Both the position numbers and the translations under genes were made by a program. A stretch of DNA of 58,338 nucleotides from Lachnospiraceae bacterium (GTDB lineage Bacteria > Bacillota > Clostridia > Lachnospirales > Lachnospiraceae): NCBI GenBank assembly GCA_045580245.1, contig JAZNNL010000010.1, positions 1-58,338 of the forward strand. The letters are read 5' to 3'. Shown in pieces: positions 7,565 to 58,338 of this stretch (position 1 is its first letter; each line of letters starts with the position of its first letter). Under the pieces are notes generated by a model. The model did no database searches and was not told the origin of the DNA. It was given only the letters and a program-made list of their open reading frames with translations.

Positions 7565-7738
7565 TAAGTATGTTTGCTGCTGCCTTGAAAAGCTTTCCTC
7601 TAAAGACCCTTGCCAAACGTCGGCGCTTAGCGAGAAGGCTTCCTTTTGAAGCATTCGAGCTTAGCGTCCGTTACGTTTGGCACGGAGCGAAAGCGCGTCT
7701 GTGAGGAAACTTTTCAAGGCATCCGGAACACCTACTTA
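7565..7738 (+). repeat. Dispersed structured intergenic element, copy A (core 7581-7721)
   Basis: Paired arms TGCCTTGAAAAG-C-TTTCCTC / GAGGAAA-CTTTTCAAGGCA, AGAC/GTCT, TGCCAAACGT/ACGTTTGGCA and CGCTTAGC/GCTTAGCG, plus a GCGAAAGC side hairpin; homologous to copies B-E. Confidence 0.85.
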
Positions 7739-8803
7739 TTTTTCAATATTTCTAAACTCCTCACAACTCATACCGGCCACGGCCTTCATATCCGCATCCA
7801 TCATCATAGCTGCCAGTTCCTGAAATCCAATCTCACGCTGCCAGCCCAGTTCTGTTTCCGCCTTGGTGGCATCGCCCCACAAAAATTCTACTTCTGCGGG
7901 TCTGTAGAATACAGGATTGACATCTACTAACAGTTTACCGGTAGCTGCATCGTAACCTTTTTCATCCACACCGGTGCCTTCCCAGCGGATGGTTATCCCC
8001 AGATTTTTGAAGCTTTCTTCCACAAATTCACGAACGGTATGGGTCTGTCCGGTCGCCAGCACGTAATCGCCGGGCTTTTCCTGTTGCAACATCATCCACA
8101 TACCTTTCACGTAGTCTCCTGCAAATCCCCAGTCACGCTTGGCATCCATATTACCCAAAGACAGCTTTTCCTGTTTCCCTGCCATGATATTTGCAATAGC
8201 TAAGGTGATTTTACGAGTCACAAAATTTTCACCTCTTCTGGGTGATTCGTGGTTAAACAGAATGCCGTTGCAGGCAAACATGTTGTAAGACTCTCTGTAG
8301 TTTACGGTAATCCAGTAGGAGTACAGTTTTGCCACGCCGTAAGGACTCTTAGGGTAAAAAGGTGTTTTCTCACTCTGGGGTGCCGTTTCCGGCAAGCCTC
8401 CAAACAATTCAGAGGTAGATGCCTGATAAAAACGGCATTCACCGCCCCAAAGTCTGATTGCTTCCAAAAGCTTTAGCGTACCAACGCCGGTAGCTTCCGC
8501 CGTATATTCAGGAACTTCAAAAGAAATGCCTACATGGGACTGGGCAGCCAGATTATACACTTCAGACGGTTTTATCTCTGCCACCAGTCTGATCAAATTA
8601 CTGGAATCCGTCAAATCTCCGTAATGCAGGAAAAATTTAGTATTGTTATATTCTGACTTTAAAACACTGTCCAGTCTGTCCAGATTTTCTGTACTGTGAC
8701 GACGGATAATTCCGTGCACCTCATATCCCTTCTCTAATAAAAACTCTGCAAGATAAGAACCATCCTGTCCTGTAATACCTGTAATAAGTGCTGTTTTACT
8801 CAT
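7736..8803 (-). CDS. gmd: GDP-mannose 4,6-dehydratase
   Basis: [55 protein letters not shown]. Confidence 0.97.
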
Positions 8804-8816
8804 TTTTATCCTTTCT

Positions 8817-9000
8817 TAGGTTGGTTTGCATGTGCTATCCGATGCAATATACTTCCACGCAAGGACCGTTAGGAAACGCCGGTCCTTAGTATGCGTTTAA
8901 AGCGAAGCTTTGCATACTTAGTACCGCTGCGTTTACTGTCGAGCGAAAGTGCGTCCTGCGGGGAAATATATTGTATCGGATGGCTGGTGCAATCAACCTA
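8817..9000 (+). repeat. Dispersed structured intergenic element, copy B (most diverged)
   Basis: Paired arms GCTATCCGATGCAATATA/TATATTGTATCGGATGGC, GGAC/GTCC, AAACGC/GCGTTT and GGTCCTTAGT/ACTTAGTACC; apical AAAGCGAAGCTTT; side hairpin GCGAAAGT. Confidence 0.8.
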
Positions 9001-9031
9001 CTCAATATTAAAAATTATATTATTTTTCCAA

Positions 9032-9071
9032 TTCACAAATGAAGTATACTATTGTATAATCAGGTTATCAA
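9032..9071. promoter_or_regulatory. Overlapping divergent sigma-A promoters for araC (+) and gmd (-)
   Basis: Plus strand: TTCACA (9032-37), 17 bp, TATAAT (9055-60). Minus strand: TTGATA (9071-66), 17 bp, TATACT (9048-43). Confidence 0.65.
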
Positions 9072-9129
9072 GTCATTATGTTGCTGTTAAATTGCAAAAT
9101 ATTGCTATCGCAATACAGAAGGGAGTTTT

Positions 9130-9963
9130 ATGGCAAATTCACATTCCGAGCGTATTCTGGTTACACCATCCGCTTATACAAAAAAGCATTATCTCTACAT
9201 CCAGGAAATTGGAACGTTAACCAGTTTAGAGCCCCATTTAAGCAGGCGTGAACGGTTGGACTCCTATCTTTTCTTTATTGTGACACAGGGTAGCGGTACC
9301 GTCACCATAAATGGTGAAGCCTTTGATGTCAAAGCCGGTGACTGCGTCTGGTTAAACTGTCTGGTTCCCTATTCTCACAAAAGTAACCTGCATGATCCAT
9401 GGACTCTGCACTGGGTACATTTTAACGGCTCCCAGGTTCCCCCTTTTTATCAGCTCTTTGGGGATAAGGGGGGCTCTGCAGTTTATACCCCGGCAGGTCT
9501 CTCTTCTTATAGCGAAATTTTACAGACGCTTTTTAGGTTACAACAGAAACCTGAAGTTCTTACGGATTTACTTTCACATAAGTATCTGACGGATTTGATT
9601 GCCTTGATTTTTACGGATGCCCTGCACCGCAGTACAGATGTCTCTGTACCCAATAAATTTATAGATATTCAAAACTATATCGAAAACAATTATACGCAGA
9701 AAATCACTTTGGATTCCCTTGCCGCACAGTTTTTCATCAGTAAGTATCACTTACACAGGGAATACCAAAAATTATTTGGCACTACTATTACCAATGCACT
9801 TTCCCTAAAGCGCCTTGCCCACGCAAAAAAACTGCTACGTTTTTCAAAGGACAGCATAGAAAGCATTGCCGTTTCCAGCGGTTTTCAAACCGCCTCTTAT
9901 TTTATTAAGGTCTTTAAAAAATATGAAGGTATGACACCTCTTGAGTATCGGCGCAAGTGGTGA
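9130..9963 (+). CDS. AraC family transcriptional regulator
   Basis: N-terminal cupin-like ligand domain (WTLHWVHF) and C-terminal double HTH (SGFQTASYFIKVFKKYEGMTPLEYR). Confidence 0.92.
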   Translation: MANSHSERILVTPSAYTKKHYLYIQEIGTLTSLEPHLSRRERLDSYLFFIVTQGSGTVTINGEAFDVKAGDCVWLNCLVPYSHKSNLHDPWTLHWVHFNGSQVPPFYQLFGDKGGSAVYTPAGLSSYSEILQTLFRLQQKPEVLTDLLSHKYLTDLIALIFTDALHRSTDVSVPNKFIDIQNYIENNYTQKITLDSLAAQFFISKYHLHREYQKLFGTTITNALSLKRLAHAKKLLRFSKDSIESIAVSSGFQTASYFIKVFKKYEGMTPLEYRRKW

Positions 9964-9988
9964 TATACTAAGGCAAACGAGGTGACTT

Positions 9989-10447
9989 ATGATAATATTC
10001 CAAGAATTATTACAAAACAAAGTTTTAATCAGCGCTTTGGCCGGCTGGTGTATTGCACAGGTTCTAAAAACCATTATTCATCTGTTTTTTACCAAAAAGT
10101 TTGTAGCCGAAAGGCTGGTGGGCAGTGGCGGTATGCCCAGTTCTCATTCCGCAACGGTTTGTGCGCTGTCAACTTCCGCACTCATTGTTTATGGTATCGG
10201 CAGTTTTGAATTTGCCATTTCCTTTATTCTGGCAGTCATTGTTATGCACGACGCCATGGGTGTACGCCGTGAAACCGGTATCCAGGCAAAAGTACTGAAC
10301 GAATTAATTGAAGTGTTTGCCGCAATGGACAGCGACATGTCTGCCCAGGAAAAACTAAAGGAATTTGTAGGCCATACCCCTTTGCAGGTTTTAGTTGGTG
10401 CACTTCTAGGTATTACCATTGCAATTCTGGTATGTATTATGTTATAA
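9989..10447 (+). CDS. Divergent PAP2 family protein (DUF212)
   Basis: SGGMPSSHSA, VMHDAMGVRR and GHTPLQV motifs. Confidence 0.9.
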   Translation: MIIFQELLQNKVLISALAGWCIAQVLKTIIHLFFTKKFVAERLVGSGGMPSSHSATVCALSTSALIVYGIGSFEFAISFILAVIVMHDAMGVRRETGIQAKVLNELIEVFAAMDSDMSAQEKLKEFVGHTPLQVLVGALLGITIAILVCIML

Positions 10448-10485
10448 TGAACTTTGGGATTTTTTGACGAAAGAGAGGATATATT

Positions 10486-11664
10486 ATGAAGAAACATTCA
10501 TTACTTCTGTTGTTATCCCTTTCCGCTATGCTTGTACTCGGCGGATGCGGCAATGACTCAGAAGATGCTGATGCTCCCGTACGTCCCAGTGACCTGGAGC
10601 AGACCATCGAATCTACAACACAGGATACCACAGCTACCACTCCTGAAACCACTGTTGAAACCGAAGAAGAACCGGAAGATGTTCCCCCTGAAGAAGGCTT
10701 GGTTCACAGCCCTTTAACCAACGAATGGATTGATGAAGAACTGGCAGCACAGCGTCCCATCGCAGTAATGTTCCCTATCGACAGAGCCGCTCAGCCTCAA
10801 TACGGCATTGGTGAAGCCGGCGTATTGTACGAGTGTCTGGAAGAAGGAAACATGTCCCGTCAGATGGGTATTATCCAGGATTGGAAAGACATGGAAACCA
10901 TTGGTAACATCCGAAGCGGTCGTGACTACTACGGATACTGGTGTATGGAATGGGATGCCATTTTTGTACACTGGGGTGGCCCTTACTACCTGTGTGAAGT
11001 AACCGGACGTGATGATTTCGATTACTTATCTGCAGTTGCAGTAGGTGCAGGCAGTGCCATTGAAACTCCCGCAGCAGGTGCCGGCGCATTCTTCCGTTGG
11101 GGTGACAACTCAGCTCCTCACAACGGTTATACCAGCGGTGAAAAATTATTAAAAGCGATTAACTCTTTAGAATATGATGTAGAACACACTTCTTCATCTT
11201 ACGAAGCAAAACACTTTGATTTCGTTCCCATGGGTGAAATCAATACCTTGGCAGATGCTGCTGATTCTTTCGAAGCAACTGAGATTGATTTAACAGGTAT
11301 TTTCCCTGTTACCAAATCTTCTTTTGAATACGATGAAGCAACCGGCACTTATTTAAAATATCTGTACGGTTCTCCTCAGATTGATGCTGCTACCGGTGAA
11401 CAGCTTGCATTTACCAATATCATCATCCAGGATACCGCATGGGAATACAGAGAAGATAATAAGTATCTGAAATTCCAGACCAACGATTCCGGCCGTACCG
11501 GTTGGTACTTCACACAGGGTCGCGGCATCCAGATTACCTGGGAAAAGGAAGATGACTTCTCTCCTACCAGATACTATGATATGGAAGGCAATGAAATTGA
11601 AATCAATGCCGGACATACCTATATCGGTGTAGCACAGGAAGGTTGCAAGCCTATTTACGAATAA
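10486..11664 (+). CDS. Lipoprotein, DUF3048/YerB-like
   Basis: Lipobox LVLGGC, acidic linker, SPLTNE..RPIAVM, RSGRDYY, HWGG, APHNGY. Confidence 0.8.
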   Translation: MKKHSLLLLLSLSAMLVLGGCGNDSEDADAPVRPSDLEQTIESTTQDTTATTPETTVETEEEPEDVPPEEGLVHSPLTNEWIDEELAAQRPIAVMFPIDRAAQPQYGIGEAGVLYECLEEGNMSRQMGIIQDWKDMETIGNIRSGRDYYGYWCMEWDAIFVHWGGPYYLCEVTGRDDFDYLSAVAVGAGSAIETPAAGAGAFFRWGDNSAPHNGYTSGEKLLKAINSLEYDVEHTSSSYEAKHFDFVPMGEINTLADAADSFEATEIDLTGIFPVTKSSFEYDEATGTYLKYLYGSPQIDAATGEQLAFTNIIIQDTAWEYREDNKYLKFQTNDSGRTGWYFTQGRGIQITWEKEDDFSPTRYYDMEGNEIEINAGHTYIGVAQEGCKPIYE

Positions 11665-11672
11665 GCATGATG

Positions 11673-11722
11673 AAAGAACTGCAGGAAATTAGTCAAAGCT
11701 GATTTCCTACGGTTCTTTTTTT
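11673..11722 (+). terminator. Rho-independent terminator
   Basis: AAAGAACTGCAGGAAATTAG-loop-CTGATTTCCTACGGTTCTTTTTTT, directly after the lipoprotein stop. Confidence 0.75.
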
Positions 11723-11826
11723 ATGCACAAATGGGACTAACATACGATATTAAATGATTACATTTTGTGATAATATGAAATACAAAATAATATATTATTA
11801 GTATGCGTATCATTTGGGGAGGTCTT

Positions 11827-12534
11827 ATGAAATTTGTAATTGAGCATTTATCCAAGAAGTATGAAAGCAAGGTTGTATTAAAAGATATTGACTTTACCTT
11901 CGAAAAAGGACGGATTTACGGCCTGCTGGGTCGCAACGGTGCCGGCAAAACCACTTTATTTAATTGTTTAAACAGGGACATCAAATCTGATGGAGGCACC
12001 TTTTATTTCCTCACCGAAACAGGTCACCGGGAGGTCACGCCGGAGGATATCGGTTATGTACTGTCCACGCCTACTGTTCCGGAATTTTTAACCGGCAGGG
12101 AATTTTTGAAGTTTTTTATGGATATCCATAGTAATACCATAAAAAATCCCCAGCCGTTGGATAATTATTTTGACATGGTGCGCATTGCTCCCGAGGACCG
12201 CGACAAGCTGTTAAAAGACTATTCACACGGTATGAAGAATAAGATGCAGATGTTAATCAACATCATTGCTCAGCCGAATCTTCTGCTTTTGGACGAACCC
12301 TTAACCTCTTTGGATGTAGTCGTAGCCGAAGAAATGAAAGAGCTGCTGCGTTCCTTAAAGGATAACCGTATTACCATTTTTTCTACGCACCTTTTGGATT
12401 TGGCACTGGACTTATGCGACGAAATTGTACTATTAAGCCACGGTGAATTACAAATTGTGGACAAAGCAGATTTAAACAACGCAGAATTCAAAGACAAAAT
12501 TATTGCTGCACTGAAGGAGGACGGAAATGTTTAA
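11827..12534 (+). CDS. ABC transporter ATP-binding protein
   Basis: Walker A GRNGAGKT, degenerate signature YSHGM, Walker B LLLLDEP, H-loop STH. Confidence 0.92.
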   Translation: MKFVIEHLSKKYESKVVLKDIDFTFEKGRIYGLLGRNGAGKTTLFNCLNRDIKSDGGTFYFLTETGHREVTPEDIGYVLSTPTVPEFLTGREFLKFFMDIHSNTIKNPQPLDNYFDMVRIAPEDRDKLLKDYSHGMKNKMQMLINIIAQPNLLLLDEPLTSLDVVVAEEMKELLRSLKDNRITIFSTHLLDLALDLCDEIVLLSHGELQIVDKADLNNAEFKDKIIAALKEDGNV

Positions 12535-14098
12535 AACTTTGCGGATTTCCTTTTCCTTAAAAAATACCTACCGGGTAAACGGCATTCTGTATGCACTAAA
12601 GCAGATACCTCTTATCAAAAAAATACTGCCGGACTCTTTATATCGGATACAGGGCTTTAAAATTTTTGCCAACATACTTTCCGTTCTGTGGGAGTTTGTT
12701 TCTGCCTTTTTATGGAAATTTTTATACTTTTTATTTATGATTTCCATGGTTGCACCTATGTATGAAAAGGTACCCCAAGATACCATGTTTATACATTTAC
12801 TCTTCTGGCTTACTTTGATAGGTTCTTTTGTAAACACCATTATGTTCGACCCTACAAAGGATAAATATTATGCCATTGTGTTATTGAACATGAACGCCAG
12901 AGAGTATACCCTTATCAATTATTTTTATGCCATGTTGAAAATAGCCGTTGCCTTTGGCTTGTTTGGTCTTTTATTCGGGTCGCAAGCCGGTTTACCCATA
13001 TGGCAATGTCTTCTGATTCCTTTTTTTGTTGTAGGCATCAAAATTATGATTGCAACCTATGCTTTGTGGCGTTACGAAAGAACCGGCAAACCCACCAATG
13101 AAAATTTGCTGAACAAATATCAATGGATTGGGATTTTACTCCTTTTGCTGATTGCTTACGCAGTACCGTTTTCAGGTATTGCCACTCCCAAAATCTTTGT
13201 GTTACCGGTCATGGCTTTTATTGCTGTTGCAGGTTTTTTGTGCATGTTTAAGCTTGTTTCATTCCCGTATTACCGTGAAGTTTATAAAGAACTTTTAAGT
13301 GAAACCATGGCAATGCAGGTCAGTGCAAAAAACATGAACAGAGAAATGTCCCACAAATCAATTAGTGCCGACACGCAGATACAAAGCAGAAAAAAAGGGT
13401 TTGAATACTTGAACGAATTGTTTATCAGGCGCCACCAAAAAATTCTCTGGAAATCTGTAAAAAAAATATCACTGGTCTGTATCGGATTGATTGCCGCTTT
13501 ATTAGTGTTATTTGCAGTGTATCCTCAGGCAAAACAGCCTGTAAACGACGCACTGATGACTTCCCTACCTATTTCCCTGTTTGTGATGTACATTATTAAC
13601 AGGGGAACAAGCTTTACCCGTGCTTTATTTATCAACTGCGACCACAGCTTATTGACATATTCTTTTTACAAGCAACCTAAATTTATTTTACAGCTGTTTC
13701 AGATACGTCTGAGGGAAATCATAAAAATCAATTTGCTTCCGGCAACTATTATCGGTTTCGGACTTGCCCTATTATTGTTTGCTTCCGGAGGCACTGATGC
13801 ACCGTTAGATTATGTTGTATTAATCGTATCCATTATATGTCTCAGCATTTTCTTTTCGGTGCACTACCTGACCATTTATTATCTGTTACAGCCCTATAAC
13901 GCCGAAACAGATATTAAAAGCGGTATGTATCAGCTCATCATGTCTGCTACTTATATGGTATGTTATATTTTTATTCAGATAGAATTGCCTACTCTGTATT
14001 TTGGCGCTGCAACCATTATTTTCTGCATTTTATACTGTATTGTAGCAAGTATTCTGGTGTATAAGCTGGCTTCAAAAACCTTTAAAATCAGGACGTAA
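12527..14098 (+). CDS. Putative ABC exporter permease
   Basis: 523 aa with about 12 hydrophobic segments in two blocks; overlaps the ATPase gene. Confidence 0.75.
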   Translation: MFKTLRISFSLKNTYRVNGILYALKQIPLIKKILPDSLYRIQGFKIFANILSVLWEFVSAFLWKFLYFLFMISMVAPMYEKVPQDTMFIHLLFWLTLIGSFVNTIMFDPTKDKYYAIVLLNMNAREYTLINYFYAMLKIAVAFGLFGLLFGSQAGLPIWQCLLIPFFVVGIKIMIATYALWRYERTGKPTNENLLNKYQWIGILLLLLIAYAVPFSGIATPKIFVLPVMAFIAVAGFLCMFKLVSFPYYREVYKELLSETMAMQVSAKNMNREMSHKSISADTQIQSRKKGFEYLNELFIRRHQKILWKSVKKISLVCIGLIAALLVLFAVYPQAKQPVNDALMTSLPISLFVMYIINRGTSFTRALFINCDHSLLTYSFYKQPKFILQLFQIRLREIIKINLLPATIIGFGLALLLFASGGTDAPLDYVVLIVSIICLSIFFSVHYLTIYYLLQPYNAETDIKSGMYQLIMSATYMVCYIFIQIELPTLYFGAATIIFCILYCIVASILVYKLASKTFKIRT

Positions 14099-14307
14099 AA
14101 AAGAACTGCGGAAAATAGAATATTTTCCTAATTCTCTGAAAAAAGTTTTCCGGCGCAGACCCTTGGCGAACGTCGGTACTTAGCGAAACTATCTCGAAGA
14201 GATAGTTTGAGTTTAGTACCGCTACGTTCGGCGGGAGCGAGAGCGAGTCTGCAAGGAAACTTTTTACAGCGAATTAGGAAAGTACCTATTCTTCACAGTC
14301 CTTTTTT
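14097..14307 (+). repeat. Dispersed structured intergenic element, copy C; probably also a terminator
   Basis: Paired arms TTTCCTAATTC/GAATTAGGAAA, AAAAAG-T-TTTCC/GGAAACTTTTT, GCAGAC/GTCTGC, CGAACGT/ACGTTCG and CGGTACTTAGC/GTTTAGTACCG; apical AAACTATCTC-GAA-GAGATAGTTT; side hairpin GCGAGAGC; flanked by an A-run and a T-run. Confidence 0.88.
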
Positions 14308-14330
14308 ATTATTATACCAGCTACACGTCT

Positions 14331-15500
14331 CTATTTATCAGCTTTCTTTCCTATACTACGATTAATATTTTCAGTAACAGCTATCATGAATACCAGTACG
14401 ACCAGTAGGAAAAAAGGGTAAATCCCAAGACCTGTTATATCCGTTATCCCCCCGAAAATCACCGGCATAAAAGTGGTGCCGATATAAGCACACCCCATCT
14501 GTACCCCCATGATTGCCTGGGATTGTTCCGGTCCAAAGTTTACCGGTGTTGCGTGAATCAGCCCGGGATAAACAGGTGCACAACCGATTCCCAATAAAAT
14601 CAATGCTATCAGTGTAGCGGTTGCTCCTAATGGCAGAAAGAATAACAAAATTGCCACAACGCATAGGGATTGTCCGATTCTCACCATATTTTTATCGCCC
14701 ATTCTATCTGAAACGAACCCGCTAATCAGTCTGCCAGCGGTGATTCCCAGATAAAACAAGGAGGCATATTTTGCCGCAGTTTCTGCATCGATTCCTTTTT
14801 CGAATACCAGAAAACTGCTTGCCCACAAACCTGCGGTTGTCTCCACGGCACAATAGCTGAAAAAGGCAACCAGCACACCTAAAGCACCTTTCATTTTCAA
14901 CACTTCTGTTATTTTCACTTTATTGTCTTTGGCATCCTTGCCTTCTTCTTGTACAGGCTTTTTCCACAACGGCAGAGAAAAGAGCAGAGCCACAACCAGA
15001 AGAGTCTGCAATACACCAATAATCTGATAACCGTTATTCCATGTCAAATGATGGGTCAGGCAAAGCCCCATAATATAGGGTCCCACAGTAGCACCTACTC
15101 CCCAGAAACAATGTAACCAGTTCATATGTCTGGATTGATAGTGTACTGCCACGTAATTGTTCAGTGCCGCATCTACGCTGCCCGCTCCCAGACCGTAGGG
15201 AATTCCCCACAGACATAATGCAGTAAAAGAGGAGGATACAGAAAAGCCAAACAACGCTACTGCAGTCATTGCTACACTGATAGCCGTTACCTTACCGGTG
15301 CCCAATGCAGCAATAATCTTACCCGAAAACATACTGGAAACAATCGTTCCTCCCGCAATAATCATGGAAATGATACTGACGGAAAAAACCGGTACCTGTA
15401 ATTCCTCATACATACTGGGCCAGGCGGACCCCAATATGGAGTCCGGAAGGCCCAGTGAAATAAATGCTATATAAATAATAACTAATAACACCGAAAACAT
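14331..15500 (-). CDS. MFS transporter
   Basis: About 12 TM segments; SLGLPDSILGSAWP, MNWLHCFWGVG and GRLISGFVSDRMGDK (MFS motif). Confidence 0.9.
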   Translation of the reverse strand: MFSVLLVIIYIAFISLGLPDSILGSAWPSMYEELQVPVFSVSIISMIIAGGTIVSSMFSGKIIAALGTGKVTAISVAMTAVALFGFSVSSSFTALCLWGIPYGLGAGSVDAALNNYVAVHYQSRHMNWLHCFWGVGATVGPYIMGLCLTHHLTWNNGYQIIGVLQTLLVVALLFSLPLWKKPVQEEGKDAKDNKVKITEVLKMKGALGVLVAFFSYCAVETTAGLWASSFLVFEKGIDAETAAKYASLFYLGITAGRLISGFVSDRMGDKNMVRIGQSLCVVAILLFFLPLGATATLIALILLGIGCAPVYPGLIHATPVNFGPEQSQAIMGVQMGCAYIGTTFMPVIFGGITDITGLGIYPFFLLVVLVFMIAVTENINRSIGKKADK

Positions 15501-15555
15501 TTATTGTCTCCTTGACACAATACTAATCCATCAAGCACACATCTGTCCCTCAGAC

Positions 15556-37022: not shown

Positions 37023-38417
37023 ATGCTTACATATTCTTTTGCCAACAGAGGCTCCGACAGTCTCTACGAATCTTTATATAAACAAATCAAGCAGGATATC
37101 CTGGATTACAAGCTTTCTCCCGACGAAAAGCTCCCCTCCAAAAGAGCTTTGGCGAAACATTTAAACGTCAGCACCATTACCGTGGAAAACGCTTATTTAC
37201 AGTTGGTTGCGGAAGGCTATCTCTATTCCGTTGCCAAAAGTGGTTTTTATGTTTCCCATGTGACTTCTTCCCAAAGCACTGAGGCAGAACGTCCTTTCAG
37301 AAAAACACCACAGCCTTCGGATATCCCCTGCTATTTTGCGGATTTTGTGAACAATTCTACCTCCGCAGACAACTTTCCTTTTGCAGCATGGACCAAACTT
37401 ATGCGGGAAACCATGTCAGATGAAGCCGATAAGCTTATGGTCAGATCCCCCTCCACAGGAATTGCACCTTTAAGAAATGCCATTGCAGACTACCTGTATC
37501 AGTTTCGCGGCATGACAGTGGAGCCGGAACAAATTGTAGTGGGTGCCGGAACGGACTATCTTTACAGTTTAATCATCCAGCTTTTAGGCCGCAGCAAAAC
37601 CTATGCCGCAGAGGACCCCGCCTATCAGAAAATCAGCAAAATGTACCGTTCCAACGAAGTGTCTTTTATTCCGGTTCCTCTGGACAAAAACGGGGTGGAT
37701 ATCACTTATTTAAACCAAACAGAGGCGGATGTATTACACATATCACCCTCACACCATTTTCCAACCGGTATCGTAACGCCCATCAGCCGCAGATATGAGC
37801 TATTATCCTGGGCCTCCAAAACAAGTGACCGTTACATTATCGAAGACGACTACGACAGCGAATTCCGCCTTTTAGGTAAGCCCATACCGTCCTTACAGAG
37901 TATCGATGTGGCTGATAAAGTGATTTATATGAATACCTTTAGCAAAACCCTGACCTCTACCATACGAATCAGTTACATGGTTTTACCCAAAAGCCTTATG
38001 GAACGCTACAAAAAAGAACTGAACTTTTACTCCTGTACCGTTTCTAACTTTGAGCAATATACTCTGGCAAAATTTATTGAAAGGGGCCATTTTGAAAAGC
38101 ATATCAACCGCATGCGTAATCACTACCGTTCCCTGCGTGACGAAATCATCAGTTGTATCAAAAAACACCCCGACTACCATAAAGTCACCATCATGGAGGA
38201 AAACGCCGGATTACATTTCCTTTTATCCGTAGACACTAACTATTCTGACGAAGAATTGGTATCACGTGCCGCAGCCAACGGTATTCACGTCACTTGCCTG
38301 AGTGAATACTTTTACAACAAGACTAAATCTATCCCCCATACACTGGTACTCAATTACTCCGGTGTCGCAAAATCCAACATAGAAAAAGCCGTGGAACTTC
38401 TCTTCCACAGCTTCTAA
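37023..38417 (+). CDS. pdxR: MocR/GabR-family PLP-dependent regulator (PdxR-like)
   Basis: GntR HTH (KLPSKRALAKHL..TVENAY..L.AEGY) plus an aminotransferase-like domain (SPSHHFPTG, IIEDDYDSEF, NTFSK). Confidence 0.85.
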   Translation: MLTYSFANRGSDSLYESLYKQIKQDILDYKLSPDEKLPSKRALAKHLNVSTITVENAYLQLVAEGYLYSVAKSGFYVSHVTSSQSTEAERPFRKTPQPSDIPCYFADFVNNSTSADNFPFAAWTKLMRETMSDEADKLMVRSPSTGIAPLRNAIADYLYQFRGMTVEPEQIVVGAGTDYLYSLIIQLLGRSKTYAAEDPAYQKISKMYRSNEVSFIPVPLDKNGVDITYLNQTEADVLHISPSHHFPTGIVTPISRRYELLSWASKTSDRYIIEDDYDSEFRLLGKPIPSLQSIDVADKVIYMNTFSKTLTSTIRISYMVLPKSLMERYKKELNFYSCTVSNFEQYTLAKFIERGHFEKHINRMRNHYRSLRDEIISCIKKHPDYHKVTIMEENAGLHFLLSVDTNYSDEELVSRAAANGIHVTCLSEYFYNKTKSIPHTLVLNYSGVAKSNIEKAVELLFHSF

Positions 38418-38427
38418 TCCTTAAACG

Positions 38428-38629
38428 GGATTTGTAAGATAATTGAGGTCGTACCTGTTGCAAAAAGCTTTCTCAAACAGACCCTTGGAAAACGTCGGTG
38501 CTTAACAAAACAAACCTCGAAGAGGTGCAGTTGCGTTTAGCATCCGCTACGTTTTTCATGGCGCGAGAGCGGGTCTGTGTGGAAACTTTTTGTAACAGGT
38601 ACGACCTCTCGGTTTTACAAATCCTTTTT
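38428..38629 (+). repeat. Dispersed structured intergenic element, copy D; probably also a terminator
   Basis: Paired arms GAGGTCGTACCTGTTGCAAAAAG/CTTTTTGTAACAGGTACGACCTC, ACAGAC/GTCTGT, TGGAAAACGT/ACGTTTTTCA and TGCTTAAC/GTTTAGCA; apical ACCTC-GAA-GAGGT; side hairpin CGCGAGAGCG; outer GGATTTGTAA/TTACAAATCC followed by TTTTT. Confidence 0.88.
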
Positions 38630-40124
38630 ATTCATTTATCATTTCCAACAGAAGTTCCTTGGCTGCTTCTAATTGGTTATCATACTTCTCATCACTATAA
38701 TAACGCTCTCCGTCGAACTCTACCACTACATCCGGTTCGATGCCGATGCCATGGATGTTGGTACCGTTAGGCGTATAATAAGAGCTGATAGTCAGTTTTA
38801 CTGCAGAGCCGTCACTCATCTCAATAGGACGTTGCACAATACCTTTACCGTATGTGGTAGTTCCCATCAAAGTACCTACACCATAATCTTTAATAGCACC
38901 TGCCAGAATTTCGGAAGCACTTGCAGAATTGCCGTCCACCAGCACTACCATAGGTACTTCAATTTCTCTTTCGCCATTACAATAATATTCGTCCCTGTTG
39001 CCTTCTCTGTCCTCGGTATATACAATCAAACCTTCCGGCAACAACATCTTTGCAATATTCACAACAGCGCTTAAGCTTCCGCCGGGATTGGCACGTAAAT
39101 CCAGAATCAGTCCCTGCATACCGGTTTCTCTTGCCACTGCCAGTGCTTCTGCAAACTGGTCTTCCGTTACGGTATCAAACTCTGTAATTTGGATATAGGC
39201 AATACCGTTATCATACATCTCTGATACTACAGTGGGTGCCTCCACCTTACGACGTACTACTTCTTTTTCAATTTCCACACCGTCACGCACCAAGGTAAGG
39301 GTAACATACGTTCCTTCTTCCCCTTTAATCAATGCGGTTACTTCTGACAGTTCCAGACCATAGGTATCCTGACCGTCTACTTTATAAATAATGTCATCCC
39401 CCCGTAAATCCGCTTCTTCTGCAGGGGTTCCCGCGATCACACTACTGATTTTTGCATATCCGGTATCTTCATCCAACGCTACATAGGCACCTATGCCGTA
39501 ATATATTCCATAAGTAGACTCATACAGTTCATTCAGTTCTTCTTCGGAATAATATTCGGAATACGGGTCACCCAAGGCGGCAACCATACCCTCATAAGCA
39601 CCTTCTTCCAGAACAGATCTTTCAATATCCTCCTGATAATAATAAGTGTCAATGATTTCCTCAATCAATTCCATCTTGGCAATCATATCAGGAGTGATAG
39701 CAGTATCGGTATCTGTGGCTGTATCCTTTTCTTCCTCTTTTTCCGTGCGGTTGTCTGCCACGGAATCCCTGGCATCTGCCAGTGCCTGCAGACGATTTAC
39801 CAGATATACACTGCTTACAATAAGCAGCGCGGTTACCAGACCGGTTGCAAGACCACACCAGAAATACTTACCGCCTTTTCCTTTTTTCGGTTCCTGCGGA
39901 TTCTGTGTCCACTGGGGGTCCTGAGGATACAAGGGATACTGGGAATATTGTCCATATCCATTGTTTTGCTGATAACCGGTATTCTGTGTTGCCTGCGTAT
40001 ACTGCCCGCATGCTGTATTCTGATTTCCCTGCACATACTGCCCATACTGTGCATTCTGTGTATACTGATTATTTTGTTGCTGCTGTTGCGGTGTATTTAC
40101 CGCATAAAATTCATTTTGTTGCAT
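38628..40124 (-). CDS. S41 carboxyl-terminal processing protease (CtpA/CtpB-like) with a Q/Y-rich N-tail
   Basis: TM anchor, LGDPYSEY, PDZ (YGIGA), LDLRANPGG, SASASEI, TYGKG, YYTPNG..GIEPD. Confidence 0.92.
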   Translation of the reverse strand: MQQNEFYAVNTPQQQQQNNQYTQNAQYGQYVQGNQNTACGQYTQATQNTGYQQNNGYGQYSQYPLYPQDPQWTQNPQEPKKGKGGKYFWCGLATGLVTALLIVSSVYLVNRLQALADARDSVADNRTEKEEEKDTATDTDTAITPDMIAKMELIEEIIDTYYYQEDIERSVLEEGAYEGMVAALGDPYSEYYSEEELNELYESTYGIYYGIGAYVALDEDTGYAKISSVIAGTPAEEADLRGDDIIYKVDGQDTYGLELSEVTALIKGEEGTYVTLTLVRDGVEIEKEVVRRKVEAPTVVSEMYDNGIAYIQITEFDTVTEDQFAEALAVARETGMQGLILDLRANPGGSLSAVVNIAKMLLPEGLIVYTEDREGNRDEYYCNGEREIEVPMVVLVDGNSASASEILAGAIKDYGVGTLMGTTTYGKGIVQRPIEMSDGSAVKLTISSYYTPNGTNIHGIGIEPDVVVEFDGERYYSDEKYDNQLEAAKELLLEMINE

Positions 40125-48650: not shown

Positions 48651-48712
48651 AATTCTAAACATGCTTTATAAAAAGAATACCTACATTCTCTTTCTAACTT
48701 TCTTTTCGGTTT

Positions 48713-49857: not shown

Positions 49858-49912
49858 TTCAAAAACCTTGCCTTTCCGTCCCCGCAGTTCTTATTCTGCA
49901 ATATCATGTTCT

Positions 49913-50644: not shown

Positions 50645-50655
50645 ACATGCTCCTT

Positions 50656-51900: not shown

Positions 51901-52046
51901 ATCGTTTCCCCTCCATAGGTATTTTCCACTTTTTGTCACAAGATACATTATATATGATTTCTGCGGTAAAAAAAAGAGGGGATTTTTATATAGCAATTTT
52001 ACGTTTTCCGGATAGTGATTTCATGCAGGCAAGCCATACGGGCAAT

Positions 52047-52796: not shown

Positions 52797-52924
52797 GCTA
52801 CTTGTCAGCGCCTCCTTGGACATATCTTGTTTCCATGGTTTTTCCTCCTAAAAACAAGTTCCATAATGTATCTACGGATTAAATTTACACCAGGAAGAGT
52901 CCATTAAAAGTATCTTTGAACAAC

Positions 52925-52958
52925 AAAAAATCCCAGGAGCAATAACTCATGGGATTTT
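52925..52958 (-). terminator. tRNA terminator
   Basis: AAAATCCCA..TGGGATTTT stem, with a T-run on the minus strand immediately 3' of the tRNA. Confidence 0.7.
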
Positions 52959-52962
52959 AAAA

Positions 52963-53034
52963 CAGGGCTACAAGGATTCGAACCTTGAAATGACGGAGTC
53001 AGAGTCCGTTGCCTTACCGTTTGGCGATAGCCCT
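52963..53034 (-). tRNA. tRNA-Gln (anticodon CTG); CCA not encoded
   Basis: AGGGCTATCGCCAAACGGTAAGGCAACGGACTCTGACTCCGTCATTTCAAGGTTCGAATCCTTGTAGCCCTG folds into a cloverleaf with a GTTCGAATC T-loop. Confidence 0.96.
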
Positions 53035-53053
53035 TTATGCGATTACTTTATGC

Positions 53054-53082
53054 ATTATACATGAACTATATTCATTTTGCAA
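53054..53082 (-). promoter_or_regulatory. Sigma-A promoter of tRNA-Gln
   Basis: TTGCAA-17 bp-TATAAT, about 20 bp upstream of the tRNA. Confidence 0.75.
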
Positions 53083-53131
53083 TACCCTTTTTTCATTTTT
53101 CTTTGTTTTTTTGTAGGTACAATTTAAACAA

Positions 53132-54280
53132 TTAGGATTTATGCATGTTCATCGCCTTATCCAGTGCAAAATCAACAGCCAATATGACCAGGCAGTACAG
53201 ACACATCCATGGTACGATAGTGTGATTGTGCACAGCGTTTAAGTAATAAAACGGCGGTAAAAGATATTGTAACATCCTAAAGCGTCTTACCGCAAAGAAT
53301 ACAGGACAGAGTATCAGCATACCAATCATCAGCAAAGGAATACAGGTTCCCAGCCTTTGCAGGTTGCCGCACAGCTTTTTTACCACACTGCAAAAGCCAA
53401 CGGACATAACGAGGTACAAAATCATCAGCCCCGTTTCTTTTAACCATCCTTCAAAATCGCCGGATAATGCAAGTGCAACAAACACTGCTATGCCTGCACA
53501 AAGCATGGCCGCCAGCTCATAACCGTACAGATATTTCTGCCTGTTTTTCAGTGCAACCCTGTCAAACACACCTGCTGCCTCATCCTGCAAATAATACATA
53601 ACCGCAGACAGTCCGCATAACATAATCACAAGCGCAAGCAACCCGCGGACCGGTGCCGTCAGATAATTGCCCTCCGCCGGATTATTTTCCTTCACTTCCC
53701 CATTTAACAAGGTCAGTTGAAACAAATCTCCTTCCACGCGGGCAGATTCATAGTACGTACGCAGTTCTTCCCCGGACAAAGTATCCCCACCCAGTTCATT
53801 TTGCACATACTTTTCATAAACCGTGTACGGAAAATAGGAATACAATGCGCCATACAATTTTTCTCTGGATAACTGTAGTGCCACATTATCTTCCCTCTCC
53901 AGTATGCGGATAAAAGGTCTGTCATACGCACCTGCAATATATTCTTCCAGCCGTTCCTGCATTTTATCCGAAAAAATCCAGGCAGCATCAGCATTGCCAT
54001 TCTCTACCAGCTCATAGGCCTCTTCTTCATCAAATACCTGCTGATACTGCAAAACACTATTTTCCGAAAGTAAATCTTCTACCAGTTGAGAGGACAGCAG
54101 GTCTTTCTCATTTTCCTGGTATAACACAATATGTAACATACCGCTTTCTTCTTTTGCAACCAGTCCCATGGATAACACCAGCACCGGAATACTGCACAAA
54201 AGAATCAGAAAGCCCGGTTTTTTCAGCAATCTCTTACAAGTCAGGCAAAACCACAATAAACTCTTTTGTAATTTTCTCAT
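53132..54280 (-). CDS. ABC-2 family permease
   Basis: N-terminal TM, large extracellular domain and about 5 C-terminal TM segments (YLLPPFYY). Confidence 0.82.
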   Translation of the reverse strand: MRKLQKSLLWFCLTCKRLLKKPGFLILLCSIPVLVLSMGLVAKEESGMLHIVLYQENEKDLLSSQLVEDLLSENSVLQYQQVFDEEEAYELVENGNADAAWIFSDKMQERLEEYIAGAYDRPFIRILEREDNVALQLSREKLYGALYSYFPYTVYEKYVQNELGGDTLSGEELRTYYESARVEGDLFQLTLLNGEVKENNPAEGNYLTAPVRGLLALVIMLCGLSAVMYYLQDEAAGVFDRVALKNRQKYLYGYELAAMLCAGIAVFVALALSGDFEGWLKETGLMILYLVMSVGFCSVVKKLCGNLQRLGTCIPLLMIGMLILCPVFFAVRRFRMLQYLLPPFYYLNAVHNHTIVPWMCLYCLVILAVDFALDKAMNMHKS

Positions 54281-54340
54281 TTTCTTCTCAATTCCACCGC
54301 ATAAAATCACTTGTACCGTGCGGACCTTACGGGGTTATTC

Positions 54341-55579
54341 TTAACTGTTTCTGATTTTGTATGTCCGAACCATGACCGCAAGCCCCAAAAACAACGCAAA
54401 GTACACTGTCATGACCATAAAAGCACCGCCCCATCCGGTCTGTTTCAGACAGGCACTTGCATATTCCACTGCAGCTCCCGTAGGTAAATATGCCGCCAGT
54501 TTTTGGATGCTTTCCGGAAAGAAAGAAATCGGATACAGACATCCCGATATATATCCCAACCCAATTGCAATTAAAAACTGTGCCAAAACACTGCCCACCA
54601 TGCCCGAAACCGTTTCATAAACCAGAAACTGCAGGGCAGACAGCAACATACATACCGGTATGAGTTCTATGAAAAACAAAAACAAGGCACCCACTCCTTG
54701 CCCTTCCCACTCAGGCAATGTCATACCGGTCATGCCCATGACAATAGCAAGCAATGCAAAAACCAGTGCCAAAGTCCCCAGCATCAAAACCACATATGCA
54801 AGGTACTCTCCCAGCACTTGACCAAGCGCATTCCGGCCTCTGGATTTTAACAGTTTCGGCAGGGTATGACTTCTTTTTACAAACAAAGGACTGCATACAA
54901 TGCCCCACAAAAGCAAAAACAGTACCAACACACCACAGGCATAGTATCCCACAAAGGACAGTTGATGAGCTACTCCCACCGTTTCCAATTCATAGACCTG
55001 TGTTCTGCCTAAAATAAAATTGGCAATCTGCAAATACAGTTCATCGGTAGCATCCCAATACACATCCTGCATCCCATGGTCAGCCATATACCACTGGGCA
55101 CCGTAAATGGCATTCTGGGATTCTACCACCAATTTGGAAATGGTTTCCACCAGTTCATTCATAATGGTGCTTCCCACACCGGAAGCTCCTACACTGGTCA
55201 CATAAGTAATGGGCTTATTCTCTCCGGTTACCAAAGAATCTACAAATCCCTCCGGAATCACTACATATGCGGAAATTTTTCCCTGCAGTAAGTTCTCTTT
55301 AGCTTCCTCTTCTGTCATATCAATAAACGATATGGCAAATCTGGAAGAGTCCAGATTCTGTATGGTCTGGATACCAATGCCCAGATAAGAGCCTTCCAAA
55401 TCACCGGCAAGGCCAATCTGTATCATCTGTTTTTCCTCTGAAGCGTTGTTTTTCTCCAACACCACCCACATCAGTAACGCCATACAGCCCAACAGAAACA
55501 GGGTTGTAAGCAAAATGGTAGGAAATACCTTTATGACGCGTTTTAATTGTGCCCAAATATATTTTCCACAGTTGGTCAT
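54341..55579 (-). CDS. ABC-2 family permease
   Basis: VVIPEGF extracellular domain; SGCLYPISFFPESIQKLAAYLPT. Confidence 0.85.
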   Translation of the reverse strand: MTNCGKYIWAQLKRVIKVFPTILLTTLFLLGCMALLMWVVLEKNNASEEKQMIQIGLAGDLEGSYLGIGIQTIQNLDSSRFAISFIDMTEEEAKENLLQGKISAYVVIPEGFVDSLVTGENKPITYVTSVGASGVGSTIMNELVETISKLVVESQNAIYGAQWYMADHGMQDVYWDATDELYLQIANFILGRTQVYELETVGVAHQLSFVGYYACGVLVLFLLLWGIVCSPLFVKRSHTLPKLLKSRGRNALGQVLGEYLAYVVLMLGTLALVFALLAIVMGMTGMTLPEWEGQGVGALFLFFIELIPVCMLLSALQFLVYETVSGMVGSVLAQFLIAIGLGYISGCLYPISFFPESIQKLAAYLPTGAAVEYASACLKQTGWGGAFMVMTVYFALFLGLAVMVRTYKIRNS

Positions 55580-55587
55580 CTTTTACG

Positions 55588-56250
55588 TCAAAGCCTCCCC
55601 ACCAATTTGCTCACATTTCCATCATATGCATAAGGTTCCAATACACCTTCTTTTAAAATAAACCATTTATCGCACAGTGCCAGCTCCTGCACATCATGGG
55701 TTGCCAGCAAAATGCTGCCGCCTTGTGCTTTAAAATCCCGTAAATAGTTATAAATCCGTTCTTTACACACCAAATCCAGCGCAGCAGTAGGCTCATCCAT
55801 TAAAAGTATTTGCGGTTTTCCGGCTACCGCACAACCGATGGATAATCTTTTTTTCATACCGCCTGACATTTTATGTACCGGCACTTTAATAAAATCATGA
55901 ATACCAAGCATGGCAAGAACGCCCTCTTCCAATTCCTTTCGCAAGGTCGCCTTGTCATACCAAAGCCGCAGATTATCCCATGCAGTCAGCTCTTCCAACA
56001 ACGGATTCCCCTGCGGTACGTAGCCGATTACCTTTGTCCTCAGGCTCTCATGCTGAAACAAATCCGTATTGTCCCACAAAAAAGTGCCGCCATCCGGCTT
56101 CTGTACGCCGGCAAGCGTGGAAAGCAGGGTGGACTTGCCACTACCATTGCTTCCCAAAATGCCAATGCATTCTCCGGCTTCTGCCGAGAGAGTAATATTC
56201 TGTAATACTGTTTTATTTTTATAATTTTTCTTTATGTTTAAAATCTTCAT
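55588..56250 (-). CDS. ABC transporter ATP-binding protein
   Basis: GSNGSGKS, MSGGMKKR, LLMDEP, ATH. Confidence 0.92.
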   Translation of the reverse strand: MKILNIKKNYKNKTVLQNITLSAEAGECIGILGSNGSGKSTLLSTLAGVQKPDGGTFLWDNTDLFQHESLRTKVIGYVPQGNPLLEELTAWDNLRLWYDKATLRKELEEGVLAMLGIHDFIKVPVHKMSGGMKKRLSIGCAVAGKPQILLMDEPTAALDLVCKERIYNYLRDFKAQGGSILLATHDVQELALCDKWFILKEGVLEPYAYDGNVSKLVGRL

Positions 56251-56260
56251 AATATGTTTT

Positions 56261-58093
56261 TTAATATTCGTAATAGTATTCTTCCGGTGCCGGTGCTGCT
56301 GAATATCCGAACAAATATCCGATAATGTCCTTTGCATCCATTTCGGATATATCTTCCAGCATATCGGTTATTTCATCATCCACTTCTGCTTTTACCAGTT
56401 TCCTGATGTAACCTTCCCAGTCTGCAGTTTCATACCATTCTTCAAAATCCTCAAAATCTTCCACTTCCACTACATTTTTATCTGCAGGCAGTTTTACTGT
56501 TTTGCCGGAATCTCTGGATAAAGCCAGGGTAACCGTTCCCCACTTTTCTTCTTCCTGCATCACACTGCAAACCAACTCTACGGAATTTACATCACTATCC
56601 GCCTCCATTTTTACAGACATCTCTCCGATAACGGATGCAAAAGAGGATAATTCCATGGCACGGATCAGACTGGAAGAAGGGGCTATTGTAAACGTTCCCT
56701 GCAACTGTCCTGCTTTTGCCTTATCGGTATCAAACTTCTCTACGGCAATTTCTACCAATCCCATGCCGTTATAGGCCACTTCAAACTCACCGGTTAACTT
56801 GCCGCCGGAATCTTTACCGCTGCCCGCAAATTCTATTCTTTCCTCATCCATTTCACAACTTGCAGTAAAACCAAAGGAAGAACCGTCATGTGTCATAAGC
56901 ACTTCCACGCTCTGTCCGTCCTGTTCTAAGGCACGGCCACAGATATTGCCCTTGGAATCCACATAGACAAGCATTACAAATTCCATGTCATAGTCAGAAA
57001 TATATTCTGCTTCATCCAAAGCATACTCTATTTCTTCCTGCAAATTTTCATAAAACTCTTCTGCATCCATATCCAGATCCATATCGAAATCGGACTCTTC
57101 TATCGCAGCAAAGGTCTCTAATACCCATTCTCTGATATCTTCATCCTCTTCCATGGTTTCTAAAACAAGTTCCGCCATGTCTGCCAATGTTTTTTCATCA
57201 ATGGTAACTTCCAGTTCTACACAATCCTGTGAAACACCCTCTGCGCGAATGGTTTTTTCTGACATATCTACATCATCAATACAGGAAAGTGCCAGTTGTG
57301 TATATCTGTTTAAAAGTTTTTCGGTTAATTTCTTATCCGGTGCCGCTTCATAAAATACTTTTAACAAATCAAAAAGCTCCACTGCTTCTTCGGTATCAGA
57401 AACCTCCGCCAGCATATACATTGGATTTAAATCCGGCAGCTGCAGGTAAGCATTTTCCTCTGCTATATCCAAAATACCTGCAATATGCAACAACTCTGTT
57501 TCCTGCAAATCCACAGAGAGCTTATTGTCTTTTACAGATACATCTGCCGCAAAGCTCACACTATCCAGCCAGGATAAATCAATACCAGCCATACCTGCAA
57601 GACTTAACATATCCATCCCTGCCTCTTCCAGCTTGGCGCTTGCCTCTATACTGACACTAGTGTCATATATCTTCAAACTCTCTCTTATATAGTCATTATA
57701 TATGGTAGTAACATTGGAAACTGCTTCCTCCGCCGCATTTCCTTCCACCCACTGATAATACTCTTCCGGCTCTGAAAAGGTCTTTTTAAACCAGTTTTTC
57801 ACCGTTGCGGAAGTCAACAGGAAAACCAACAGCAGAATTACCGCCAAAACAGCCACACCAATACCAATCAGCAAGCCCATGGGCGGCTTTTTACCGGACA
57901 CTTTCTTTTCAGCAGGCACACCGGGTGCAGGCATTTGGGGCTGTACGGGTGTTGCCGTTACCGGCCGGGCAGGTGCCTCCGTTGTCTCAGCTTGGGCAGG
58001 TGCCGTACTTCCGACCAGCGGATTTCTCCAGCCGCACTTACCGCAGAACCTTTCTGTCTCGGTCATCTGATTACCACAATTACCACAAAACAT
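56261..58093 (-). CDS. Zinc-ribbon membrane protein with a large acidic extracellular domain
   Basis: MFCGNCG..FCGKCG, Pro/Ala linker, single TM and D/E-rich C domain; GAGGAGG RBS before ATG at 58093. Confidence 0.8.
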   Translation of the reverse strand: MFCGNCGNQMTETERFCGKCGWRNPLVGSTAPAQAETTEAPARPVTATPVQPQMPAPGVPAEKKVSGKKPPMGLLIGIGVAVLAVILLLVFLLTSATVKNWFKKTFSEPEEYYQWVEGNAAEEAVSNVTTIYNDYIRESLKIYDTSVSIEASAKLEEAGMDMLSLAGMAGIDLSWLDSVSFAADVSVKDNKLSVDLQETELLHIAGILDIAEENAYLQLPDLNPMYMLAEVSDTEEAVELFDLLKVFYEAAPDKKLTEKLLNRYTQLALSCIDDVDMSEKTIRAEGVSQDCVELEVTIDEKTLADMAELVLETMEEDEDIREWVLETFAAIEESDFDMDLDMDAEEFYENLQEEIEYALDEAEYISDYDMEFVMLVYVDSKGNICGRALEQDGQSVEVLMTHDGSSFGFTASCEMDEERIEFAGSGKDSGGKLTGEFEVAYNGMGLVEIAVEKFDTDKAKAGQLQGTFTIAPSSSLIRAMELSSFASVIGEMSVKMEADSDVNSVELVCSVMQEEEKWGTVTLALSRDSGKTVKLPADKNVVEVEDFEDFEEWYETADWEGYIRKLVKAEVDDEITDMLEDISEMDAKDIIGYLFGYSAAPAPEEYYYEY

Positions 58094-58150
58094 ATGTAAT
58101 CCTCCTCGTTTGTATCTATCGTTTTTTTCCTTATGTAAACCCATATTTTT

Positions 58151-58179
58151 ATTATACTTTTCCGTATATTTTCTGTCAA
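58151..58179 (-). promoter_or_regulatory. Perfect-consensus sigma-A promoter of the zinc-ribbon/ABC operon
   Basis: TTGACA-17 bp-TATAAT on the minus strand. Confidence 0.85.
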
Positions 58180-58199
58180 CACGCCCCAGCCATACAGAA

Positions 58200-58338
58200 T
58201 AAAAAGAGACTGTTTTTAGGATTCGTAACAATATCCGTTGCAAAAAGTTTCCACGCAGACGCGCTCTCGCTCCGTGGTCAACGTAGCAGTACTAAGATTT
58301 TTTCTGCGTATATGTTATACTTGAAAAAATCAAGTGCT
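58200..58338 (-). repeat. Dispersed structured intergenic element, copy E (3' part, inverted, truncated by the window edge)
   Basis: Minus strand reads ..CTTAGTACTG-CT-ACGTTGACCA-CGG-AGCGAGAGCG-C-GTCTGCGTGGAAACTTTTTGCAAC.., matching the 3' half of copies A, C and D. Confidence 0.85.

Follow-up and report, generated by a model that had tools for sequence, protein, structure and literature searches.

A structured intergenic repeat lies beside host genes of the window

We analysed a stretch of 58,338 nt from a Lachnospiraceae bacterium (contig JAZNNL010000010.1 of assembly GCA_045580245.1, positions 1 to 58,338), called the window below, which carries five copies (A to E) of a gene-less intergenic repeat of about 200 bases with a conserved head on long inverted arms. 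We found that this repeat family is real and uncatalogued, and that its head is conserved at individual sites even where it has been inverted in place between its arms. The genome from which the window comes (G000) is a 2.29-Mb assembly that is 83% complete. The original prediction, made from the window alone, had placed five copies in it, and all five were recovered at those positions by a covariance model, with scores of 113 (C), 107 (A), 101 (D) and 85 (B) bits, and 47 bits for copy E, which is 5′-truncated at the contig end. The elements do not end at the limits first proposed, every copy continuing outward into longer, copy-specific arms, and the end motifs claimed as shared hold only in part, copy B having no A-tract and T-tract ends. 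The copies and their parts are as follows, in coordinates of the window.

7553..7750, + strand: copy A in full, arms included; on the right, the arm enters gmd by 15 bp (last codons and stop)
7605..7699, + strand: head of copy A, with junction stem, T.T mismatch 7628/7662, apex 7629-7661, TT bulge 7671-7672 and GAAA side hairpin 7687-7694
8797..9019, + strand: copy B, whole element (tight pairing 8817-9000); its left arm covers the ribosome-binding site and start of gmd
8864..8955, + strand: head of copy B, with apex 8888-8918 (loop C-GAA-G) and side hairpin 8943-8950
8843..8987, no strand assigned: 145-nt stretch absent from copy B in near-identical contigs from two runs of two studies, with a 6-nt direct repeat at the joint
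14096..14308, + strand: copy C in full, in a gap between two convergent genes; the upstream permease-like gene's stop codon is where the left arm starts
14158..14249, + strand: head of copy C, with apex 14182-14213 (loop C-GAA-G) and GAGA side hairpin 14237-14244
38421..38629, + strand: copy D in full, likewise in a gap between two convergent genes, with weaker pairing out to about 38371-38678
38480..38575, + strand: head of copy D, with apex 38504-38537 and side hairpin 38563-38570
58190..58338, − strand: copy E, cut by the contig end; it holds the 3′ half of the head, the side hairpin 58270-58263 and the right arm

The flanking host genes are the following.

6594..7535, − strand: NAD-dependent epimerase gene (PF01370), presumably GDP-fucose synthase-like
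7736..8803, − strand: gmd, GDP-mannose 4,6-dehydratase (PF16363), with copies A and B on either side
9130..9963, + strand: AraC regulator
12527..14098, + strand: permease-like gene without a Pfam match, downstream of an ABC ATPase gene
14331..15500, − strand: MFS transporter
37023..38417, + strand: GntR-aminotransferase regulator
38628..40124, − strand: S41 peptidase

The head is a covarying three-way junction on copy-specific arms

Copies A to D are predicted to fold with z values of −5.7 to −7.1, none of 200 shuffles being equally stable, and folding of their reverse strands is only slightly weaker (z −4.8 to −7.1). The head of about 95 nt runs from a short stem to a three-way junction, where a 2-bp side hairpin branches off, then to a long stem and an apex. 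The long stem carries an unpaired pyrimidine, a 2-nt YT bulge, usually a C.A mismatch, and a T.T mismatch; the apex is free in both length and sequence. As had been claimed from the window, the T.T mismatch, the YT bulge, the unpaired pyrimidine and the side hairpin are conserved, and every compensatory pair listed there is present in the alignment of the copies. In the alignment of 45 G000 copies from which the covariance model was built, 89.8% of cells paired and two-sided changes occurred in 28 of 36 pairs, a result reached by none of 500 shuffles, and slid controls paired at 35-45%. The covariation was also found in a larger set of 108 distinct copies, of which nearly all come from other genomes, with 89.5% pairing and 33 of 36 pairs covarying in an alignment that was fitted to the covariance model and hence leans toward it. 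A count of 274 GNRA side loops in 274 copies was discarded as circular, because the search pattern itself had fixed the purine.

The arms on which the head stands differ in sequence from copy to copy. Their median length is 66 nt (82 of the 96 matches could be anchored), and they usually end near the end of a gene, often a few codons inside it, and often reach stop codons with A/T tracts. The arms are 80% paired, and their mismatches comprise 194 G.T and 195 A.C (72 copies). Apical loops were C-GNA-G in 23 of 74 parsed copies and mostly T- or A-rich in the others, while GNRA or UUCG was seen in none of the 74. C-GNA-G is a stable loop of the DNA type. The absence of a G.U bias in the arms, together with the C-GNA-G apical loops, favours folded DNA over RNA.

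Variants of this anatomy were also seen. Headless intergenic hairpins with the outer-arm motif of young elements occur in G000 at C3:13548, C47:8107, C70:1154, C109:10628 and C166:1164, and are probably deletion remnants or unused targets. One locus (L237:150-480) has a fully symmetric head with a side hairpin on both strands, arising from copying of its 3′ half. At L181, L182, L210 and L222, which may be related by descent, a second element is nested in the apex of another, in opposite orientation in all four. A search of 297 3′ halves found no gene inside the apex; 15 of them looked unusual and proved to be variants, nested copies or, in one case, a symmetric head.

Heads are inverted in place at orthologous sites and evolve slowly in either orientation

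We tested 47 heads of a relative (G141) against G000: 13 lacked syntenic flanks, 14 sites were scored empty and 20 were filled. At 10 of the 20 filled sites the head was inverted in place between the same arms. The syntenic head was the best match among 87 G000 heads at 15 of the 20 sites, including 7 of the 10 flips, and in a second relative (G161) one of three filled sites was flipped. Among the window copies, the G141 orthologue of copy A keeps its orientation and has a different apex, whereas that of copy B is inverted in place with a head identity of 80/84, again the best match among the 87 heads. For copy D, the G141 orthologue keeps the orientation and the G161 one is inverted, with a head rank of only 39 of 87. 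Four-way arm alignments at 17 loci agreed with these calls, the inner arm columns being swapped in 26 cases and positional in 0 at flipped loci, against 26 positional and 2 swapped at unflipped loci. The longest exact repeat between the arms of these loci is just 7-26 nt, and the crossovers lie within the arms (as at L279) and differ between loci, which argues against flips made by the assembler. At the unflipped locus L282/C104, mid-arm segments have been exchanged in a double swap, indicating two inversions. A set of 21 apparent within-species flips was discarded, since the two members of a single doublet had been matched with each other.

The heads at shared sites were 92% identical between G000 and G141 (1431/1556 positions in 18 heads; core 93%, apex 91%). 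By comparison, four-fold codon sites at most 800 bp away were 61% identical (1742/2868), other intergenic DNA 68%, and the arm zone 22-45 nt out from the head 66%. After Jukes-Cantor correction, these values correspond to 0.085 substitutions per site in the head, 0.56 at four-fold sites, 0.42 in other intergenic DNA and 0.45 in the arm zone, so that the head evolves about 6-fold more slowly than neutral sites, regardless of its orientation and with the locus-specific apex included. Concerted evolution would leave the substitution rate unlowered and would erase the bulge, the mismatches and the side hairpin, indicating purifying selection on the head at every site, with its orientation left free. 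The original prediction that selection acts on structure rather than sequence therefore needs revision: the head is indeed constrained, but its sequence is kept too, and covariation alone is not proof. A homing or recombination hotspot was considered and rejected, since no peak of identity around the elements was seen in 400 kb of G000 and G141.

Paired arm changes carry the signature of template switching

Within the inner 50 nt, we identified 58 columns in which both arms had changed together (17 loci), and in strains that are 98-99% identical a 3-nt block was altered simultaneously in both arms. At L388 and L475, a different apex lies in otherwise matching surroundings in near-identical strains. 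At C104 of G000, the non-coding arm repeats, inverted and across the element, the final 16 codons of a PHP-family gene, and the same holds in G141. The convergent genes at C7 both end in GEEE, and those at C45 end in DSSK and DSLK. As a further observation, L388, L396, L416, L444, L457, L475 and L492 represent one doublet locus in near-identical strains, at which apices are swapped, the spacer is replaced, one member is lost and the arms change in pairs. Hypermutability of the arms was rejected as an explanation, their rate of 0.45 substitutions per site being close to the 0.42 of other intergenic DNA.

Polymerase template switching, or quasi-palindrome mutation, is described as making arms alike, lengthening stems, inverting spacers and producing compensatory changes of several bases (PMC8604942, PMC8794818), all of which resemble what we found. 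As presented there, it is a general process acting on short repeats, and it leaves unexplained both the spread of the element and the conservation of its asymmetric head. The block changes in paired arms and the inversion of the head are the signature of template switching, and covariation alone therefore does not show selection. Much of the stem covariation probably stems from template switching during replication rather than from selection.

The family is abundant and enriched between convergent genes

An iterated profile gave 96 non-redundant matches in G000 at E<0.01 and 87 at E<1e-5, or about 90 copies, as had been anticipated by extrapolation from five copies to many per genome. The covariance model, with matches counted up to 24 per genome, matched 103 of 149 relatives in the genus, and five relatives examined more fully hold from 20 to at least 147 copies each, so that copy number among relatives ranges from 0 to at least 147. 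When species genomes were scanned with a pattern, at least 124 stretches matched, mostly labelled Lachnospiraceae; among the matches listed were Eisenbergiella, including the named species Eisenbergiella tayi, Butyrivibrio, Pseudobutyrivibrio, Oribacterium and Robinsoniella, as well as a few metagenome bins with other labels. In a class-wide draw of Clostridia, matches were found in two of three Lachnospiraceae genomes and in none of 146 others. DNA nearly identical to the window occurs in animal-gut sequencing runs. A search of Rfam at gathering and E-value thresholds gave no match to the element, returning only a tRNA and sub-threshold miRNA and snoRNA hairpins, so the view of it as an uncatalogued structured family stands. 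No description of the family was found in a literature search, which does not extend to the motif catalogues in the supplements of large noncoding RNA (ncRNA) screens, where it could be held. Carriage by phages or plasmids was rejected, as two patterns gave 0 matches in viral contigs and blastn gave 0 matches in phage and plasmid records.

Gaps between convergent genes are about 3-fold enriched in copies (18/53 vs 78/677 gaps, p=5e-6). In tandem gaps, 63 copies were antisense and 48 sense, with no significant bias (p=0.18), and divergent promoter gaps are occupied as well (18/180, copy B among them). Of 11 close pairs, or doublets, 10 are divergent; the single other one is probably a false pattern match, since the covariance model found one copy there.

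Several side observations concern the surroundings of the copies. Contig ends frequently fall within or next to a copy, and the perfect outer arm at C13:13886 of G000, which may be an assembly fold-back, was not used. The block at 11700-14330 of the window (ABC ATPase, permease-like gene and copy C) is missing at the corresponding site of G141 and G161, in both of which the genes on either side adjoin directly. In run X1, a strongly diverged allele spans positions 7419-7730, taking in copy A and the 5′ portion of the epimerase gene, within an otherwise near-identical 94-kb contig; this suggests a recombined patch in the GDP-sugar locus. The window also holds a tRNA gene at 52963-53034 (−) and, at 56261-58243 (−), a frame of 660 aa without a Pfam match that starts with a small Cys-rich motif; its real start is probably located downstream of copy E.

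Copies are gained and lost, and searches for a partner gene

In 400 kb compared between G000 and G141, 11 sites were shared, 9 were found in G000 only, 3 in G141 only and 2 were unclear. Besides the 145 nt absent from copy B, 180 nt of the C30 copy are missing in two contigs, with a 3-nt repeat at the joint. Both joints lie at short direct repeats, are asymmetric to the arms on opposite sides and leave a small hairpin, and we read both losses as slippage deletions. At the empty site C31:7551, a short hairpin has its centre at the insertion point, and one other empty site is free of a hairpin. The view that the copies are not a burst of fresh, identical MITEs (miniature transposable elements bearing inverted repeats) was borne out. 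The alternative first raised, a non-autonomous element moved by an enzyme encoded elsewhere, stands in part: gain and loss of sites show mobility, but the enzyme was sought and not found.

The searches for a partner were made in incomplete assemblies, and their negatives mean "not found" rather than "absent". No Y1 (PF01797) or RAYT gene was detected in G000. Y1 genes occur in 50 of the 149 relatives, less commonly in copy-rich ones (4 of 27 with at least 22 element matches) than in those with no match (20 of 46; kin that are not independent), and the element is absent from the best 30 Y1 loci. An IS1182 DUF772 gene was not found in G000, G141, G161 or G127, and the two in G059 have no element nearby. 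The best 30 IS110 loci gave 0 element matches, and G000 has no IS110 match above the family cut-off. For GIY-YIG, G000 has just a 630-aa frame, and no small gene was found in it or in the 149 relatives at E<=1e-11, a cut-off that can miss divergent members. The four-helix bundle PF05635 was not found in five genomes. No autonomous version of the element was found. No recurrent mobile gene near it was found in 155 element-bearing loci (of 176), 60/70 short neighbours and 911 open reading frames; the neighbours are ordinary, unrelated housekeeping genes.

Individual neighbours were noted nonetheless. Screening of tyrosine recombinases gave no link to the element. One of them, a XerS-like gene (G000 C100:17157-18218, L041), is conserved in 110 of the 149 relatives and is followed by a copy in G000 only; it was rejected as a partner, a copy adjoining in just 1 of 30 loci. 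An Rpn/YhgA-like gene (L106:506-1447) ends just before the copy of a single-copy genome, and was likewise rejected, as none of four other Rpn loci has an element. A CptIN type III toxin-antitoxin gene (L124:1850-2383) adjoins one copy, as does a gene at L132:2853-3461 that we take to be Uma2-like. Loss of SbcCD as a permissive state was rejected, because SbcD is present in G000 and in many copy-rich genomes.

Comparison with known repeats and structured elements

The closest likeness in behaviour is to REPINs and their RAYT partners, which are gene-less and extragenic, number tens to hundreds per genome, form long hairpins of the single-stranded DNA (ssDNA) type with compensatory changes, are confined to lineages and undergo asymmetric deletions (PMC3116915, PMC6006769). 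REPINs, however, consist of conserved REP ends around a variable centre according to these sources, whereas our element has a conserved junction head on variable arms whose sequence is particular to each copy and evolves at the neutral rate. No constant foot of the REP type (GTAG/GTGG) was seen on inspection of the alignments or the arm consensus. Terminal inverted repeats common to all copies, as in a MITE, were not seen either, the outer-arm consensus being weak (30-60% per column). CGTC-tagged repeats are another family without a dedicated transposase (PMC3733652).

The TwoAYGGAY motif (RF01731) is likewise structured, intergenic and multi-copy, with very variable copy number, mostly divergent doublets a few hundred bases apart, an elongated basal stem in Bacillota and no known function (10.64898/2026.09.22.753630). 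Our element differs in having no AYGGAY loops, one apical arm with the 2-bp GNRA hairpin and no Rfam match, and the section of that source on TwoAYGGAY mentions neither in-place inversion nor arm copying. The bcr1 repeat of the Bacillus cereus group is also a Firmicute repeat (~155 bp) with a branched fold, compensatory changes and non-conserved positions, but it has fixed ends, 5-bp direct repeats and two stem-loops (PMC3184786), while the ends of our element are locus-specific and without constant duplication. The Ssn/NTS repeats of Neisseria, hundreds of hairpins bound as ssDNA by a host nuclease that affects recombination (PMC11893778), offer a model for host recognition, although our element is much longer and the small GIY-YIG gene was not found, within the limits given above. 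Structured DNA elements of ~220 bp with a host role at the replication fork are described for the RRS of E. coli, which unlike our element number two per genome, are based on G-quadruplexes and depend on orientation (PMC10592627).

Integron attC sites share with the element a folded ssDNA, extrahelical bases and a variable terminal structure. The element, in contrast, lies outside cassette arrays, shows no link to an integrase, lacks an invariant AAC/GTT and has a three-way junction. The attC sites are also a precedent for ssDNA motifs mistaken for RNA (PMC5737381).

A putative folded-DNA site and its alternatives

The element reads best as a REPIN-like, partly domesticated DNA-hairpin element. 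We think it somewhat probable that this dispersed, gene-less repeat works as a folded-DNA site, either a single-strand hairpin or a cruciform, recognised by a putative trans-acting protein. The proposed history would begin with the gain and loss of sites seen between species, whole heads being deleted in some near-identical strains. A trans-acting enzyme would insert new copies, preferring the tips of existing hairpins near gene ends, those of older copies included. Template switching between the arms, the mechanism suggested by their paired changes, would then keep them complementary, copy host DNA into the opposite arm and sometimes invert the head. The slow evolution of the head in either orientation may reflect a host protein that recognises the folded plus-strand junction, and the family would thus be partly domesticated, as has been argued for REPINs.

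Several observations weigh against this proposal. The flip and selection figures come mainly from one pair of incomplete assemblies (83% and 73%), and 2 of the 10 flips are weak, L258 being a remnant and L293 facing a doublet. Among near-identical strains (metagenome loci with flanks at least 95% identical, about ten locus clusters) no true flip was found, indicating that flipping is slow and is not phase variation. The fixed divergent orientation of doublets sits badly with free flipping unless flipped doublets are lost. Empty sites between species are mostly headless remnants or unalignable, and comparison of filled with empty sites gave no clean insertion site and no constant target duplication. 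No partner gene was found beside any set of loci or by the family screens, which did not cover reverse transcriptases and PDDEXK_2, and the insertion and recognition steps are therefore without a molecule behind them. In addition, the head has G.U-type pairs, and its side hairpin, whose 2-bp stem covaries, bears a GNRA loop in 74 of 74 parsed copies with the two middle bases left free; both features fit RNA.

These last features would be expected of a multi-copy structured ncRNA of the TwoAYGGAY type, in which an RNA head docks through its GNRA loop on a receptor or protein and is made by read-through transcription from either side, and the shared copy-number behaviour, divergent doublets and elongated basal stem of TwoAYGGAY (10.64898/2026.09.22.753630) point the same way. 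However, conservation is kept at the half of the filled sites where the head is inverted, tandem gaps show no sense bias, the arms have no excess of G.U, the apices carry C-GNA-G triloops and Rfam holds no match. The ncRNA first offered as one option is thus disfavoured, and we consider it rather unlikely. A purely selfish MITE or REPIN without a host role would account for the high turnover, the strain-level deletions and the apices swapped between copies in near-identical strains (L388, L475), the identity of heads at shared sites then being due to re-seeding, conversion or recent transfer between species. The flanks of shared sites do show somewhat higher identity (0.84-0.86) than the flanks of unshared sites (0.77-0.79), but the low identity at nearby four-fold sites shows that the loci are not recent transfers, and with no identity peak in 400 kb recent transfer is an unlikely source of shared sites. 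Conversion from a common pool would erase the locus-specific head features that are kept at 15 of 20 sites, and an autonomous element was not found. We hold this explanation to be improbable. A bidirectional terminator or protector of mRNA 3′ ends, forming a long stem from either strand, would explain the enrichment at gene ends and the indifference to orientation, in line with the convergent gaps, the arms ending at stop codons with A/T tracts and the good folding of both strands. Such a role does not need an asymmetric junction, bulge and mismatch kept at 92%, it could be served equally well by the short hairpin that deletion leaves, divergent promoter gaps are occupied too, and copy C has no terminator-like site call, so that it appears very unlikely.

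Returning to the folded-DNA site, we tentatively propose an extension that is possible but, on balance, doubtful: the elements may form a new class of domesticated, orientation-free DNA-structure sites, at which a putative Lachnospiraceae host protein nicks or stalls at the three-way head. Repair would then flip the head, swap apical modules and rewrite neighbouring DNA, including the last codons of genes, and each copy would be a small self-editing locus kept by selection.

Covariation probably produced by template switching has here a clear bacterial case, which calls for caution in covariance-based discovery of ncRNAs. The question of what maintains REP-like repeats becomes testable without RAYT, in an abundant, uncatalogued repeat of a dominant gut bacterial family that is carried by named species such as E. 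tayi. A sequence that is conserved while its orientation is free at each copy points to a function at the DNA level and to a binding protein, and a repeat of this kind can change the C-terminal codons of the genes beside it.

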